Source: Escherichia coli (GTDB taxonomy: Bacteria > Pseudomonadota > Gammaproteobacteria > Enterobacterales > Enterobacteriaceae). From it: 64,000 nucleotides of DNA. Made by a program: the position numbers and the translations under genes. Shown one piece after another: positions 17,803 through 25,472 of the stretch; the stretch's first letter is position 1; each line of letters opens with the position of its first letter. The stretch lies in assembly GCF_030013595.1 (NCBI RefSeq), contig NZ_CP122768.1. One strand, 5' to 3'. Under the pieces are notes generated by a model, which saw only the letters and a list, made by a program, of their open reading frames with translations, was not told the origin of the DNA and searched no databases.

Positions 17803-18746
17803 TGAGTCGTCCTCGTCGTCGCGGTCGCGACATTAACGGCGTTTTGTTGCTGGATAAACCGCAGGGTATGTCCAGCAACGATGCGCTGCAAAAAGTGAAA
17901 CGGATTTATAACGCCAACCGTGCCGGGCATACCGGTGCGCTGGACCCGCTGGCAACTGGCATGTTGCCAATTTGCCTCGGGGAAGCGACGAAGTTTTCCC
18001 AGTATCTGCTGGACTCCGACAAACGCTATCGGGTGATTGCGCGTCTTGGACAGCGTACCGATACGTCTGACGCCGATGGACAAATCGTTGAAGAACGTCC
18101 GGTAACCTTTAGCGCAGAGCAACTGGCGGCGGCGCTGGATACTTTCCGTGGCGATATCGAACAGATCCCTTCGATGTATTCAGCACTGAAATACCAGGGC
18201 AAAAAACTGTACGAATATGCGCGTCAGGGCATTGAAGTACCGCGTGAAGCGCGCCCGATTACCGTTTATGAATTGCTGTTTATTCGCCACGAAGGCAATG
18301 AGCTGGAGCTGGAAATTCACTGCTCAAAAGGCACTTATATCCGCACCATCATTGATGACCTGGGTGAAAAACTCGGTTGTGGCGCGCATGTTATTTACCT
18401 GCGTCGTCTGGCGGTAAGTAAATATCCGGTTGAACGGATGGTGACCCTGGAACATCTGCGTGAACTGGTTGAACAAGCCGAACAGCAGGATATTCCAGCC
18501 GCGGAGTTACTTGATCCATTACTGATGCCAATGGACAGTCCAGCTTCGGACTACCCGGTGGTGAATCTTCCGTTAACGTCTTCTGTTTACTTCAAAAATG
18601 GTAACCCGGTTCGTACATCCGGTGCGCCGCTGGAAGGACTGGTTCGCGTTACAGAAGGTGAGAACGGCAAGTTTATCGGTATGGGCGAAATTGACGATGA
18701 AGGCCGCGTCGCGCCTCGTCGCCTGGTGGTTGAATACCCGGCGTAA
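17802..18746 (+). CDS. truB: tRNA pseudouridine-55 synthase
   Basis: 314-aa ORF; catalytic-Asp region [11 protein letters not shown]. Confidence 0.95.
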
Positions 18747-18798
18747 TGTTAACCGTCTTGCGATAACAGGTCGCTACGAGTAGAATACTGCCGCTTAA

Positions 18799-19164
<366 letters not shown>

Positions 19165-19180
19165 TTCTTGCGAGTTTCAG

Positions 19181-19208
19181 AAAAGGGGGCCTGAGTGGCC
19201 CCTTTTTT
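19181..19208 (+). terminator. rpsO terminator
   Basis: aaaagggggcc-tgagt-ggcccctttttt. Confidence 0.65.
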
Positions 19209-19211
19209 CAA

Positions 19212-19410
19212 GCTGACGGCAGCAATTCACTGGAAACTAATGTATTGTTGCTATGAATGATCTTCCGTTGCAGAGGTTCGCGCGGCTAATGAGAGGCTTT
19301 ACCCACATTGGGCTGGGTTAGGGTTGTCATTAGTCGCGAGGATGCGCAGAAGATCGGGTATTAACACCAGTGCCGTAAGGTACTGTCTAAGAAAGAGAAA
19401 GGATATTACA
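19212..19410 (+). promoter_or_regulatory. pnp promoter and 5' leader (autoregulatory, RNase III-processed region expected here)
   Basis: 199-nt untranslated region between the rpsO terminator and the pnp start; the function is from established knowledge of the rpsO-pnp locus, the processing site itself was not mapped. Confidence 0.4.
19215..19390 (-). ncRNA. sraG: Possible SraG/PsrO-type antisense sRNA opposite the pnp leader
   Basis: Location only; an sRNA divergent from pnp is described at this locus in K-12, but I could not verify its sequence or ends. Confidence 0.25.
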
Positions 19411-21546
19411 TTGCTTAATCCGATCGTTCGTAAATTCCAGTACGGCCAACACACCGTGACTCTGGAAACCGGCATGATGGCTCGTCAGGCTACTGCCGCT
19501 GTTATGGTTAGCATGGATGACACCGCGGTATTCGTTACCGTTGTTGGCCAGAAAAAAGCCAAACCAGGTCAGGACTTCTTCCCACTGACCGTTAACTATC
19601 AGGAGCGTACCTACGCTGCTGGTCGTATCCCGGGTAGCTTCTTCCGTCGTGAAGGCCGCCCAAGCGAAGGCGAAACCCTGATCGCGCGTCTGATTGACCG
19701 CCCGATTCGCCCGCTGTTCCCGGAAGGCTTCGTCAACGAAGTTCAGGTTATCGCCACCGTGGTTTCTGTTAACCCGCAGGTTAACCCGGATATCGTCGCG
19801 ATGATTGGTGCTTCCGCAGCACTGTCTCTGTCTGGTATTCCGTTCAATGGTCCGATTGGTGCTGCCCGCGTAGGTTACATCAATGACCAGTATGTACTGA
19901 ACCCGACTCAGGACGAGCTGAAAGAGAGCAAACTGGATCTGGTTGTTGCGGGTACTGAAGCCGCTGTACTGATGGTTGAATCTGAAGCTGAACTGCTGAG
20001 CGAAGACCAGATGCTGGGCGCAGTAGTGTTCGGTCATGAACAACAGCAGGTTGTTATTCAGAACATCAATGAACTGGTGAAAGAAGCCGGTAAACCGCGT
20101 TGGGACTGGCAGCCGGAGCCGGTAAACGAAGCGCTGAACGCGCGCGTTGCTGCACTGGCTGAAGCTCGTCTGAGCGATGCTTACCGCATCACCGACAAAC
20201 AAGACCGTTATGCGCAGGTTGATGTCATCAAATCTGAAACCATCGCGACGCTGCTTGCTGAAGATGAAACCCTGGACGAAAACGAACTGGGTGAAATTCT
20301 GCACGCTATCGAGAAAAACGTTGTTCGTAGCCGCGTACTGGCAGGCGAACCGCGTATCGACGGTCGTGAAAAAGATATGATTCGTGGTCTGGATGTGCGT
20401 ACTGGCGTGCTGCCGCGTACTCACGGTTCTGCGCTGTTCACCCGTGGTGAAACGCAGGCACTGGTTACTGCAACGCTGGGTACCGCTCGTGACGCACAGG
20501 TTCTTGATGAACTGATGGGCGAACGTACCGACACCTTCCTGTTCCACTACAACTTCCCTCCGTACTCCGTAGGCGAAACCGGCATGGTCGGTTCTCCGAA
20601 ACGTCGTGAAATTGGCCACGGTCGTCTGGCGAAGCGCGGCGTGCTGGCAGTCATGCCGGATATGGACAAATTCCCGTACACCGTACGTGTGGTGTCTGAA
20701 ATCACCGAATCCAACGGTTCCTCTTCTATGGCTTCCGTGTGCGGCGCGTCTCTGGCGCTGATGGACGCAGGTGTGCCAATCAAAGCTGCCGTTGCGGGTA
20801 TCGCAATGGGTCTGGTGAAAGAAGGCGACAACTACGTTGTACTGTCTGACATTTTGGGCGACGAAGATCACCTGGGCGATATGGACTTCAAAGTTGCAGG
20901 TTCCCGCGACGGTATCTCTGCACTGCAGATGGATATCAAAATTGAAGGTATCACCAAAGAGATCATGCAGGTTGCGCTGAACCAGGCTAAAGGTGCGCGT
21001 CTGCATATCCTGGGCGTAATGGAACAGGCGATCAACGCGCCGCGTGGCGATATCTCTGAGTTCGCACCGCGTATCCATACCATCAAGATCAACCCGGACA
21101 AGATCAAAGACGTTATCGGTAAAGGCGGTTCTGTTATCCGTGCTCTGACCGAAGAAACTGGCACCACCATCGAAATCGAAGATGACGGTACTGTGAAAAT
21201 CGCAGCGACCGACGGCGAGAAAGCGAAACATGCTATTCGTCGTATCGAAGAGATCACTGCAGAAATCGAAGTGGGCCGCGTCTACAATGGTAAAGTGACC
21301 CGTATCGTTGACTTTGGCGCATTTGTTGCCATCGGCGGCGGTAAAGAAGGTCTGGTACACATCTCTCAGATCGCTGACAAACGCGTTGAGAAAGTGACCG
21401 ATTACCTGCAGATGGGTCAGGAAGTACCGGTGAAAGTTCTGGAAGTTGATCGCCAGGGCCGTATCCGTCTGAGCATTAAAGAAGCGACTGAGCAGTCTCA
21501 ACCTGCTGCAGCACCGGAAGCTCCGGCTGCTGAACAGGGCGAGTAA
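19411..21546 (+). CDS. pnp: Polynucleotide phosphorylase
   Basis: Start placed at the TTG giving (M)[20 protein letters not shown] (711 aa); RNase PH, KH and S1 domains recognisable. Confidence 0.93.
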
Positions 21547-21557
21547 GGTTGCCATTT

Positions 21558-21584
21558 GCCCTCCGCTGCGGCGGGGGGCTTTTA
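21558..21584 (+). terminator. Hairpin after pnp
   Basis: ccctccgc-tgcg-gcggggggcttt; a weaker T tract follows. Confidence 0.4.
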
Positions 21585-21654
21585 ACCGGGCAGGACGCCT
21601 TGTTAGCAACCGGGAACAGGACGTTCATTCAACCGTGGTCTTCGGGAGTGGGAA

Positions 21655-22539
21655 ATGAAGCCTTTTTTGCGCTGGTGTTTCGTTGCGACAGCACTTACGC
21701 TTGCAGGATGCAGTAATACTTCCTTGCGTAAAAGTGAAGTCCTCGCGGTACCATTGCAACCGACTTTACAGCAGGAAGTGATTCTGGCACGTATGGAACA
21801 AATCCTTGCCAGTCGGGCTTTAACCGATGACGAACGCGCACAGCTTTTATATGAGCGCGGAGTGTTGTATGATAGTCTCGGTCTGAGGGCATTAGCGCGT
21901 AACGATTTTTCGCAAGCGCTGGCAATCCGACCGGATATGCCTGAAGTATTCAATTACTTAGGCATATATTTAACGCAGGCAGGCAATTTTGATGCTGCCT
22001 ATGAAGCGTTTGATTCTGTACTTGAGCTTGATCCAACTTACAACTACGCGCACTTGAATCGCGGGATCGCATTATATTACGGCGGTCGTGACAAGTTAGC
22101 GCAAGATGATCTGCTGGCGTTTTATCAAGACGATCCCAATGATCCTTTCCGTAGTCTGTGGCTTTATCTCGCCGAGCAGAAGCTCGATGAGAAGCAGGCT
22201 AAAGAAGTGTTGAAACAGCACTTCGAAAAATCGGATAAGGAACAGTGGGGATGGAACATTGTCGAGTTCTACCTGGGCAACATTAGCGAACAAACGTTAA
22301 TGGAAAGGCTCAAGGCGGACGCAACGGATAACACCTCGCTCGCTGAGCATCTCAGTGAAACCAACTTCTATTTAGGTAAGTACTACCTAAGTCTGGGGGA
22401 TTTGGACAGCGCCACGGCACTGTTCAAACTGGCGGTTGCCAACAACGTTCATAACTTTGTTGAGCACCGATACGCATTGTTGGAATTATCGCTCCTGGGC
22501 CAGGACCAAGATGACCTGGCAGAATCGGACCAGCAATAG
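21655..22539 (+). CDS. nlpI: Lipoprotein NlpI (TPR repeats)
   Basis: 294-aa ORF with lipobox LTLAGC and TPR-like repeats. Confidence 0.93.
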
Positions 22540-22645
22540 CTGACGTACACATCAGCCCGTAATCTTTTTTGATTGCCATCACCTTAACGGGTGAGGGCGT
22601 TGTTGTTCGTTAATACACCTACTTTGAGCCGGTTCACACTTTTCA

Positions 22646-22726
22646 ATGAAAATTGCTGATCAATTTCATGATGAGTTATGTAGACTGGCCGCCATTAATT
22701 TTGAGGCACACGTACTACATGGCTGA
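22646..22726 (+). CDS. yrbN: 26-codon small ORF in the deaD leader, overlapping the deaD start (YrbN-like)
   Basis: atg aaa att gct gat ... cat ggc tga = [26 protein letters not shown]; matches my recollection of the 26-aa K-12 small protein YrbN; below the ORF-track length cutoff. Confidence 0.45.
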
Positions 22727-24608
22727 ATTCGAAACCACTTTTGCAGATCTGGGCCTGAAGGCTCCTATCCTTGAAGCCCTTAACGATCTGGGTTACGAAA
22801 AACCATCTCCAATTCAGGCAGAGTGTATTCCACATCTGCTGAATGGCCGCGACGTCCTGGGTATGGCCCAGACGGGGAGCGGAAAAACTGCAGCATTCTC
22901 TTTACCTCTGCTGCAGAATCTTGATCCTGAGCTGAAAGCACCACAGATTCTGGTGTTGGCACCGACCCGCGAACTGGCGGTACAGGTTGCTGAGGCAATG
23001 ACGGATTTCTCTAAACACATGCGCGGCGTAAACGTGGTTGCCCTGTACGGCGGCCAGCGTTATGACGTGCAATTACGCGCCCTGCGTCAGGGGCCGCAGA
23101 TCGTTGTCGGTACTCCGGGCCGTCTGCTGGATCACCTGAAACGTGGCACTCTGGACCTTTCTAAACTGAGCGGTCTGGTTCTGGATGAAGCTGACGAAAT
23201 GCTGCGCATGGGCTTCATCGAAGACGTTGAAACTATTATGGCGCAGATCCCGGAAGGTCATCAGACCGCTCTGTTCTCTGCAACCATGCCGGAAGCGATT
23301 CGTCGCATAACCCGCCGCTTTATGAAAGAGCCGCAGGAAGTGCGCATTCAGTCCAGCGTGACTACCCGTCCTGACATCAGCCAGAGCTACTGGACCGTCT
23401 GGGGTATGCGTAAAAACGAAGCACTGGTACGTTTCCTGGAAGCGGAAGATTTTGATGCGGCGATTATCTTCGTTCGTACCAAAAACGCGACTCTGGAAGT
23501 GGCTGAAGCTCTTGAGCGTAACGGCTACAACAGCGCCGCGCTGAACGGTGACATGAACCAGGCGCTGCGTGAACAGACTCTGGAACGCCTGAAAGACGGT
23601 CGTCTGGACATCCTGATTGCGACCGACGTTGCGGCCCGTGGCCTGGACGTTGAGCGTATCAGCCTGGTGGTTAACTACGATATCCCGATGGATTCTGAGT
23701 CTTACGTTCACCGTATCGGTCGTACCGGTCGTGCGGGTCGTGCTGGCCGCGCGCTGCTGTTCGTTGAGAACCGCGAGCGTCGTCTGCTGCGCAACATTGA
23801 ACGTACTATGAAGCTGACTATTCCGGAAGTAGAACTGCCGAACGCAGAACTGCTGGGCAAACGCCGTCTGGAAAAATTCGCCGCTAAAGTACAGCAGCAG
23901 CTGGAAAGCAGCGATCTGGATCAATACCGCGCACTGCTGAGCAAAATTCAGCCGACGGCAGAAGGTGAAGAGCTGGATCTCGAAACTCTGGCCGCCGCAC
24001 TGCTGAAAATGGCACAGGGTGAACGTACTCTGATTGTTCCGCCAGATGCGCCGATGCGTCCGAAACGTGAATTCCGTGACCGTGATGACCGTGGTCCGCG
24101 CGATCGTAACGACCGTGGCCCGCGTGGTGACCGTGAAGATCGTCCGCGTCGTGAACGTCGTGATGTTGGCGATATGCAGCTGTACCGCATTGAAGTGGGC
24201 CGCGATGATGGTGTTGAAGTTCGTCATATCGTTGGCGCGATTGCTAACGAAGGTGACATCAGCAGCCGTTACATCGGTAACATCAAGCTGTTTGCTTCTC
24301 ACTCCACCATCGAACTGCCGAAAGGTATGCCGGGTGAAGTACTGCAACACTTTACGCGCACTCGCATTCTCAACAAGCCGATGAACATGCAGTTACTGGG
24401 CGATGCACAGCCGCATACTGGCGGTGAGCGTCGTGGCGGTGGTCGTGGTTTCAGTGGCGAACGTCGTGAAGGCGGTCGTAACTTCAGCGGTGAACGCCGT
24501 GAAGGTGGTCGTGGTGATGGTCGTCGTTTTAGCGGCGAACGTCGTGAAGGCCGCGCTCCGCGTCGTGATGACTCTACCGGTCGTCGTCGTTTCGGTGGTG
24601 ATGCGTAA
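22719..24608 (+). CDS. deaD: Cold-shock DEAD-box RNA helicase DeaD (CsdA)
   Basis: Start placed at [13 protein letters not shown] (629 aa); motifs [28 protein letters not shown] repeats in the C-terminal tail. Confidence 0.93.
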
Positions 24609-24651
24609 TCATCGCTGAACAGCGAACACAATCTGTAAAATAATATATACA

Positions 24652-24681
24652 GCCCCGATTTTTACCATCGGGGCTTTTTTG
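24652..24681 (+). terminator. deaD terminator
   Basis: agccccgat-ttttacc-atcggggctttttt. Confidence 0.6.
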
Positions 24682-24685
24682 TGCA

Positions 24686-25392
24686 CAGAAAACCCCCAGC
24701 TAGGCTGGGGGTTCCGGAAAGCTTTCAGCTTTGAGCCAGTTATTAAAACCCCTTTTGATTTGTTAAAACACCTTGCGGTCTGGCAACTGCAAGTGTCAAA
24801 CAAGAAATCAAAAGGGGGTCCCAATGGGGGACGAAAAGAGCTTAGCGCACACCCGCTGGAACTGTAAATATCACATAGTTTTTGCGCCGAAATACCGAAG
24901 ACTGGCGTTTTACGGAGAGAAGCGTAGGGCGATAGGCAGTATTTTGAGAAAGCTGTGTGAGTGGAAAAGCGTACGGATTCTGGAAGCAGAGTGCTGCGCA
25001 GATCATATCCATATGCTTGTGGAAATCCCACCCAAAATGAGCGTATCCGGCTTTATGGGATATCTGAAAGGGAAAAGCAGTCTGATGCTTTACGAGCAGT
25101 TTGGGGATTTGAAATTCAAATACAGAAACAGGGAGTTCTGGTGCCGAGGGTACTATGTCGATACGGTGGGTAAGAACACGGCGAAGATACAGGACTACAT
25201 AAAGCACCAGCTTGAAGAGGATAAAATGGGGGAGCAGTTATCGATTCCATATCCGGGCAGCCCGTTTACGGGCCGTAAGTAACGAAGTTGAATGCAAATG
25301 TCAGATCGTATGCGCCTGTTAGGGCGCGGCTGGTAACAGAGCCTTACAGGCGCATTTGAAAAACCTCCGGCTATGCCGGAGGATATTTATTC
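24686..25392 (+). mobile_element. IS200 insertion sequence (IS200/IS605 family), about 0.7 kb, boundaries approximate
   Basis: Contains an intact 152-aa TnpA nearly identical to my recollection of Salmonella IS200 TnpA; a perfect hairpin ccccagc-tag-gctgggg (24694-24712) and a second stem ccccttttgatt...aatcaaaagggg that would sequester the tnpA RBS are the IS200 left-end hallmarks; no terminal inverted repeats, as expected for this family. Confidence 0.8.
24824..25282 (+). CDS. tnpA: IS200 transposase TnpA (HUH Y1 single-strand transposase)
   Basis: MGDEKSLAHTRWNCKYHIVFAPKYRR...HIHMLVEIPP...: HxH (HUH) motif and catalytic Tyr region; 152 aa. Confidence 0.9.
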   Translation: MGDEKSLAHTRWNCKYHIVFAPKYRRLAFYGEKRRAIGSILRKLCEWKSVRILEAECCADHIHMLVEIPPKMSVSGFMGYLKGKSSLMLYEQFGDLKFKYRNREFWCRGYYVDTVGKNTAKIQDYIKHQLEEDKMGEQLSIPYPGSPFTGRK

Positions 25393-25400
25393 CTGTCTTT

Positions 25401-25423
25401 TGTACTCATGTACTGGTACAGTG
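25401..25423 (+). promoter_or_regulatory. TrpR-operator-like element at the mtr promoter
   Basis: tGTACTcatGTACTGGTACAGtg; repeated GTAC half-sites resemble the CTAG/GTAC-based TrpR operator, about 50-70 bp upstream of the mtr ATG; mtr is a known TrpR/TyrR target. Confidence 0.4.
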
Positions 25424-25472
25424 CAATGCATAACAACGCAGTCGCACTATTTTTCACTGGAGAGAAGCCCTC

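Follow-up and report, generated by a model that had tools for sequence, protein, structure and literature searches.

The tail examined here lies in a region that is already catalogued: it is the DeaD_C region (PF12343) of the Enterobacterales DeaD/CsdA proteins, from which it does not differ in kind, and as such it is an ordinary feature of one of the best-studied bacterial helicases. Residues 1-445 of CsdA reportedly complement cold sensitivity in part. The C-terminal domain of CsdA is locally very basic and has been proposed as the seat of ATP-independent annealing (PMC3590231), and the protein forms condensates in vitro in an RNA-dependent manner (PMC12796366). A summary of Xu et al. 2017 (PMC11850223) names the RNA-binding domain as the main RNA anchor of CsdA, giving Kd values of about 1 uM (isolated RNA-binding domain), 28 uM (dimeric core) and 0.07 uM (full-length CsdA), and it reports that a construct without the tail keeps its ATPase and unwinding activity.

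Human DDX21 (Gu-alpha) is laid out like DeaD, with a DEAD-box core, a Hera-type dimerisation domain, an RRM-like domain and a short basic tail of F-x-G-x-R repeats, and by this analogy it is probably the closest functional counterpart of the DeaD tail. Its own tail consists of four F/PRGQR repeats after GUCT, and when that tail is deleted RNA affinity drops at least 10-fold and unwinding to about 15% (PMC7721647). The likeness is one of layout, and the units differ in sequence and length, with FRGQR pentamers in DDX21 as opposed to units of about 11 residues in DeaD, the tail of which also contains many acidic residues.

Eukaryotic RGG/RG boxes, such as those of FUS, nucleolin and fibrillarin, resemble the DeaD tail in being disordered, rich in arginine and glycine, and located beside RNA-binding folds; non-specific RNA binding, annealing and condensate formation have been linked to them, and arginine methylation is typical of them. 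Compared with these boxes, the DeaD tail has one RGG, a single di-RG motif and about 18% acidic residues. Pseudomonas RhlE1/RhlE2 and RhlB type II share with DeaD a basic disordered C-terminal extension, which according to PMC11260450 and the bioRxiv RhlB paper modulates RNA binding and phase separation. These extensions, however, have different sequences that lack the DeaD unit, and they are not preceded by the dimerisation and RRM-like domains found ahead of the DeaD tail.

The deaD gene and its C-terminal tail

The window, by which we mean the whole stretch of Escherichia coli DNA that was analysed (64,000 nucleotides), contains the E. coli rpsO-pnp-nlpI-deaD-mtr region. ORFs for pnp, nlpI and mtr flank deaD, and the RefSeq annotation at matching loci agrees with a pnp-nlpI-deaD-mtr neighbourhood. 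The deaD product is an exact match to the UniProt protein DEAD_ECO57, which is recorded on at least 1000 contigs, and it scores 1397.6 bits against the NCBIfam equivalog NF008642 (cut-off 989), with residues 1-629 covered. Its Pfam domains are arranged in the order DEAD (aa 30-196), Helicase_C (232-340), DeaD_dimer (374-443), DbpA (489-558) and DeaD_C (568-629). Specifically, the two RecA-like helicase domains are present (PF00270, 177 bits; PF00271, 111.8 bits), and they are followed by the Hera-type dimerisation domain (PF25399, 64.7 bits) and then by DbpA. The window ORF belongs to the DeaD/CsdA subfamily of DEAD-box RNA helicases, all three marks of membership being present. A preliminary description of this DNA, made from the letters alone, had located tandem repeats at the C-terminus of DeaD, and the ORF list, Pfam and NCBIfam agree with this placement, positions 24400-24600 corresponding to the 3' end of deaD (Table 1).

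Table 1. Features of deaD and of its repeat tail, in positions of the window.
Feature	Position	Strand	Evidence and remarks
deaD (csdA) CDS	22719..24608	+	629 aa plus stop; ATP-dependent cold-shock DEAD-box RNA helicase; ORF list, profiles, equivalog
DbpA/RRM-like RNA-binding domain, aa 489-558	24183..24392	+	PF03880, 73.6 bits; PDB 5B88; AlphaFold2; directly upstream of the tail
R/G/E-rich C-terminal tail, predicted disordered, aa 568-629	24420..24605	+	PF12343, composition, AlphaFold2; no PDB coverage
U0, degenerate unit	24417..24449	+	In-frame reading; contains a 15-nt near-tandem pair, 24419-24433 / 24434-24448
U1	24450..24482	+	In-frame reading; REGG at 24465-24476 is the segment doubled in the +12 nt allele
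18-nt exact direct repeat GGCGAACGTCGTGAAGGC, copy 1, in U1	24456..24473	+	Longest run common to U1 and U3
U2	24483..24527	+	45 nt rather than 33, owing to a GDGRR spacer
U3	24528..24560	+	In-frame reading
18-nt exact direct repeat GGCGAACGTCGTGAAGGC, copy 2, in U3	24534..24551	+	78 nt downstream of copy 1
Terminal segment	24561..24605	+	Ends in a truncated unit start, RRRFGGD, 24583-24601 (repeat search)
Strong intrinsic terminator of deaD	24651..24680	+	9-bp G+C-rich stem, then a T run; conserved in K-12

The tail matches PF12343, which Pfam names 'DeaD helicase C-terminal disordered region', with 45.7 bits (cut-off 23.3) and over profile positions 1-62 of 62. Its 62 residues include 19 R, 19 G, 7 E and 4 D, for a net charge of +8. 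When AlphaFold2 was given an alignment of 46 sequences covering the RNA-binding domain and the tail, aa 563-629 obtained a pLDDT of about 41 and no secondary structure, and the RRM-like domain obtained a pLDDT of 73-90 with a beta-alpha-beta fold. The PDB entries on DeaD cover aa 6-210 (5GJU), 218-445 (5GI4) and 481-564 (5B88), and none of these reaches the tail, which the model predicts to be intrinsically disordered.

The preliminary description had also spoken of an arginine/glycine-rich, low-complexity tail of the RGG type. Its first part holds, with R and G together accounting for 38 of the 62 residues and with the low pLDDT just given, but the reference to RGG needs correction: the tail contains one RGG tripeptide and one di-RG motif (RGGGRG), 11 of its residues are acidic, and a regular-expression search of the tail for tri-RGG, di-RGG and tri-RG gave zero matches. 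In the definition reportedly set out by Thandapani et al. in 2013, an RGG/RG box is a tri-RGG, di-RGG, tri-RG or di-RG motif with spacers of 0-4 residues. Assignment of the DeaD tail to the canonical RGG boxes was rejected, since that class requires at least two RGG with 0-4-residue spacers and a single RGG is present. Because of the 11 acidic residues and the single RGG, the tail is a weaker polycation than the classical RGG boxes, and 'R/G/E-rich mixed-charge tail' is a more accurate label for it than 'RGG', which is loose.

Anatomy of the repeat

Tandem Repeats Finder reported an array at 24421-24515 with a period of 33, 2.9 copies, 74% matches and a score of 113. Read in the deaD frame, the tail contains three F-S-G-E-R-R-E-G units (U1, U2 and U3 in Table 1), the starts of which are spaced by 33 and then by 45 nt. 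These copies are exact in the window allele, where Ser replaces the Gly found in K-12 at the second position of U1 (FGG). What had been described as three near-identical units of about 33 nt is therefore right as regards the number of units and their near-identical peptide, but not as regards the DNA, which is 73-87% identical between units (26/30 for U1/U2, 24/30 for U1/U3 and 22/30 for U2/U3 over a 30-nt core), nor as regards a uniform period. A repeat search also found a copy in the U3 region, at 24508-24551, with 89% identity to 24430-24473. The near-tandem pair inside U0 marks the place where GGERR is duplicated in the natural +15 nt allele, and the terminal segment is kept in every natural deletion allele seen.

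U1 and U2 differ at four nucleotides, and all four differences are synonymous. The longest exact run is at most 8 nt both in U1/U2 and in U2/U3. The tail repeat exceeds chance and is not a by-product of composition: a 10-residue repeated peptide was observed, a length reached in none of 5,000 codon shuffles (maximum 8), and the 18-nt exact DNA repeat was equalled in 26 of the 5,000 (0.5%). Moreover, self-identity was raised at lags of 33 (z = 3.1), 45 (z = 2.6) and 78 nt (z = 4.5), and in the same shuffle test of the tail no excess was seen at lags of 27, 30, 36 or 39 nt.

Length alleles in E. coli and tails in other genera

It had been suggested that the copy number may vary between strains, and that the repeat count should be compared with that of other deaD alleles. 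We made this comparison in 5,426 complete E. coli genomes, inspecting outliers and using constructed allele sequences as queries, and saw in-frame alleles of +12, +15, -33, -78 and -132 nt. With a 381-nt query the locus was recovered from all but one of the genomes (5,425), nearly always with identical length. The canonical 629 aa is encoded by about 96% of the 5,426, length variants amount in total to about 3.7%, and whole-unit changes to about 0.4%. The natural allelic series of DeaD comprises proteins of 634, 633, 629, 618, 603 and 585 aa, with whole-unit copy numbers of 3, 2, 1 and 0. Since the alleles do vary in length, the prediction of variation between strains stands, at low frequency. 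The tail is an in-frame variable-number tandem repeat in a coding region, some of its alleles being whole units apart.

The +12 nt allele (633 aa), in which REGG is duplicated, is carried by about 164 genomes, among them E. coli 042 and JNE12-007, and the +15 nt allele (634 aa), in which GGERR is duplicated in U0, was directly seen in eight genomes and is inferred for about 14, strain 98202 being one example. Both counts derive partly from identity-band arithmetic, with at most three genomes unclassified. Specifically, a canonical 160-nt query placed 178 genomes in the 90-95% identity band, and the +12 allele, used as the query, gave 185 genomes at 95% identity or more (the 164, plus 21 alleles of the -78 type with partial coverage) and 13 in the 80-90% band. 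With the +15 allele as the query, canonical alleles align as two perfect overlapping pieces and tie with it at the top of the ranking, so the +15 count rests on the band arithmetic (178 minus 164, and the 13 genomes in the 80-90% band) together with the eight genomes directly seen. A reading of the 13-14 genomes in the low-identity band as a divergent lineage was rejected, full-gene searches showing every allele at 95% identity or more; the +15 nt allele accounts better for these genomes.

The -33 nt allele (618 aa) is a U1/U2 recombinant with two units that occurs in one complete genome, K56-43-un, and its protein is also known from draft genomes, on 4 contigs. The -78 nt allele (603 aa), a U1/U3 recombinant with one unit, is present in 21 complete genomes, and the 603-aa protein is found on 687 contigs, Shigella boydii included; the deletion is fixed in a clinical lineage of 15 genomes. 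The -132 nt allele (585 aa), in which GGERR is joined to DDSTG and zero units are left, was found in one genome, strain FXCREC035. All the length variants found are in frame, the complete genomes examined having yielded not a single frameshift. Among the 5,426 complete genomes, constructed alleles of +78, +33 and -45 nt had zero matches, and no gain of a whole unit was found. Because natural alleles with one unit (the 21 complete genomes) and with zero units exist, the repeats are dispensable for viability.

Salmonella DeaD has 629 aa and three units, as in the window. For the other genera the comparison was based on fragments of at most 270 aa, obtained by searching proteins with the RNA-binding domain and tail together; the many that were frameshifted into a V-rich frame were excluded. 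In a Klebsiella fragment GERREG occurs four times and APRRDD is duplicated, fragments from Yersinia pestis, Serratia and Ewingella have F(N/S)GERREG once or twice, and those from Hafnia, Proteus and Testudinibacter (Pasteurellaceae) have tails rich in R, G, D and K that lack the unit. Across Enterobacterales there are 0-4 GERRE units, and the tail extends 39-90 aa past the conserved ...MQLLGDA motif. The composition of the tail is conserved and the exact layout of its repeats is particular to each lineage, a common situation in disordered tails. The synonymous nature of the U1/U2 differences and the identical layout and length in Salmonella suggest that the unit peptide is under purifying selection.

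Origin of the alleles, role of the tail and competing explanations

Direct repeats flank every length variant. Four carriers of the -78 allele that were compared lie 15-44 SNPs apart over 2.4 kb, as far from one another as from the full-length window allele, and the SNPs that they carry within about 120 nt of the junction, on both sides, are not the same. The allele is present on at least four haplotypes, and the alleles closest to that of 1403KP and to that of the SCEC020001 group (15 genomes) are of full length rather than of the -78 type. These patterns suggest that the deletion has arisen repeatedly, by slippage or unequal exchange, and has then been inherited stably, the latter because an identical -78 allele is shared across the 15-genome lineage. 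We infer that the 18-nt repeat pair of U1 and U3 is the probable substrate of this deletion: -78 is the commonest whole-unit deletion and U1/U3 hold the longest exact repeat, and the single occurrence of -33 and the lack of -45 among the genomes correspond to the short exact runs in U1/U2 and U2/U3.

In the account that we favour, old in-frame duplications of a unit of about 11 codons would have built the tail, leaving three good units, a degenerate one upstream and a truncated one at the end, and the DNA of the units would then have drifted at synonymous sites with the peptide kept. The direct repeats would permit occasional replication slippage or unequal recombination, giving rise to the rare +12, +15, -33, -78 and -132 nt alleles, and the change from three units to one would have occurred through the 18-nt U1/U3 repeat on several genetic backgrounds. 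As regards function, composition and literature make a non-specific electrostatic RNA tether beside the RNA-binding domain the most likely role of the tail. A flexible tail adjoining the folded RRM-like domain would raise the local affinity for RNA, would favour ATP-independent strand annealing and would supply multivalency for RNA-dependent condensation, with specific work left to the helicase core, the dimerisation domain and the RNA-binding domain. We favour this combination of tether and multivalency because of the CsdA literature and the DDX21 analogue, and we regard the account as a whole (a repeat-built disordered tail, slippage-derived alleles and a role as an RNA tether) as highly probable.

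Two alternatives carry real weight, although we consider both of them unlikely. One is that the repeats are neutral low-complexity filler, in which selection acts on no more than a rough R/G-rich composition, or does not act at all, and the units are kept by inertia. The existence of alleles with two, one and zero units in otherwise normal isolates fits this idea, as do the number of contigs with the 603-aa form, Shigella boydii among them, the fast turnover of the tail between genera in both unit number and length, and the catalytic activity of the tail-less construct in the summary of Xu et al. 2017. Neutral filler would not, however, readily account for every U1/U2 difference being synonymous, for the identity of the three-unit layout and length in Salmonella, or for the canonical length being kept by about 96% of E. 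coli despite slippage-prone repeats, and frameshifting variants did not turn up in the complete genomes examined. The other alternative, to which we give much the same low probability, is that the tail serves mainly in protein interaction or autoregulation, docking for example on RNase E, on ribosomal particles or on DeaD's own RNA-binding domain. Here the AlphaFold2 model is unfavourable, since the tail is not confidently packed against the RNA-binding domain in it (pLDDT about 41), and the comparable tail of DDX21 is a key element of RNA affinity (PMC7721647); the same study, on the other hand, proposes that the basic DDX21 tail packs on the acidic face of GUCT and stabilises the protein, and the mixed-charge ERRE pattern of DeaD would fit protein contacts.

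The remaining explanations concern the repeat as DNA. Length alleles exist and the -78 deletion recurs, as would be expected of a contingency (hypermutable) locus in which frequent changes of copy number tune or switch DeaD. We nevertheless hold this to be very improbable, given that the units, at 33-45 nt, are long and share only 73-87% identity, with 18 nt as the longest exact repeat, that whole-unit variants make up about 0.4% of genomes and a single length about 96%, and that 15 genomes of one lineage share an identical -78 allele and no whole-unit expansions were found. On/off switching is absent because every length change is in frame. The contingency or phase-variable class was rejected on the long and diverged units, the in-frame variants, the one dominant length and the lack of unit gains. 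It is barely conceivable, in turn, that the periodicity stems from a non-coding element, of DNA or RNA, that overlaps deaD at its 3' end, be it a regulatory structure, an antisense gene or the remnant of a repeat element. The window does contain a minus-strand ORF of 110 codons at 24299-24631 and one of 71 codons in another plus frame at 24403-24618, but their products are monotonous strings, rich in P, S and R on the minus strand and in V on the plus strand, of the kind that a GC-rich codon repeat casts as its shadow. In addition, the spacings of 33, 45 and 78 nt and all the natural indels are multiples of 3, the units differ from one another synonymously when read in the frame of deaD, the peptide is maintained from genus to genus as the DNA drifts, and an Rfam scan of 18000-30000 at the gathering threshold had zero matches inside the repeat. 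Both a non-coding RNA element and an antisense gene were rejected, on the multiples of 3, the synonymous drift and the empty Rfam result in the repeat.

Returning to the RNA tether, it is conceivable, though a long shot, that the number of units acts as a natural tuning knob for RNA annealing or condensate formation, and that the recurrent -78 deletion is adaptive and not neutral slippage. If this were true, the deletion could suit host-restricted lineages of warm niches that no longer need the cold-shock function.

What this work adds is a census of the in-frame length alleles that occur naturally, which is convenient but unsurprising; the tail itself has little import beyond annotation. The census does offer a small and clean case in which the frequency of deletions tracks the length of the exact direct repeats. 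Moreover, the natural alleles are ready-made deletion and duplication constructs, already vetted by evolution, with which the part played by the tail in annealing, in cold ribosome assembly and in condensates may be addressed.

Genomes sharing the shortened DeaD tail

The 78-nt in-frame deletion that reduces the FSGERREG-type repeat in the C-terminal tail of the RNA helicase DeaD from three units to one was found in 15 complete genomes (loci L006 and H231-H245) whose deaD alleles are identical or almost identical, with 99.9-100% identity over 1.9 kb. Since this allele was carried by isolates from several countries that were mostly of human clinical origin, with one from a dog and one from a cat, the results suggest that these genomes represent a successful clonal lineage with a one-unit DeaD tail.

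Insertion sequence and RNA elements around deaD

An IS200 copy lies between deaD and mtr and contains a match to STnc490, the 5' Hfq-binding RNA of IS200, and a Y1 transposase gene; in K-12 there is no IS200 at this position and the deaD-mtr spacer is 153 nt. The element stops about 1 nt short of CTGTCTTTTGTACTC...GTACTGGTACAGT, a conserved stretch on the upstream side of mtr, and therefore the insertion might affect mtr regulation. Two RNAs detected in the rpsO-pnp region, the ribosomal S15 leader and SraG, are expected as normal E. coli features.

Features in and around deaD
Feature	Position	Strand	Details
Ribosomal S15 leader	18837-18951	+	Rfam, 117.6 bits; rpsO-pnp region
SraG sRNA	19181-19352	-	Rfam, 162.2 bits; rpsO-pnp region
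DeaD linker low-complexity stretch	about 24040-24110 (aa 441-478)		between dimerisation domain and RNA-binding domain
IS200 copy	24681-25392	+	~712 nt; between deaD terminator and mtr promoter/operator region
STnc490	24691-24814		within IS200; Rfam match, 146 bits
Y1 transposase gene	24824-25282		within IS200; PF01797

Start site and linker of DeaD

RefSeq annotates DeaD as the 629-aa form, and the small gene yrbN overlaps the deaD start by 8 nt. Starting at an in-frame upstream TTG would lengthen the ORF to 651 aa by adding 22653-22718, and a 650-aa DeaD is annotated in some database entries (e.g. P0125).

The linker is a second low-complexity stretch, R/D/P-rich with the internal repeat DRGPRDRN / DRGPRGDRE; here Tandem Repeats Finder detected a weak period-9 array (24040-24063), and database fragments indicate that the stretch varies from genus to genus.

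Frame switches in public DeaD fragments

Many public DeaD C-terminal fragments shift, inside the tail repeat, into the V-rich alternative frame, a second plus-strand frame across this region (P0006, P0008, P0009, P0020, P0035, P0051, P0053, P0057, P0060, P0062, P0063 and P0067). These switches probably reflect indel errors of sequencing or assembly in a GC-rich repeat rather than real pseudogenes, and such fragments are a warning for automated allele calling at the deaD tail locus.
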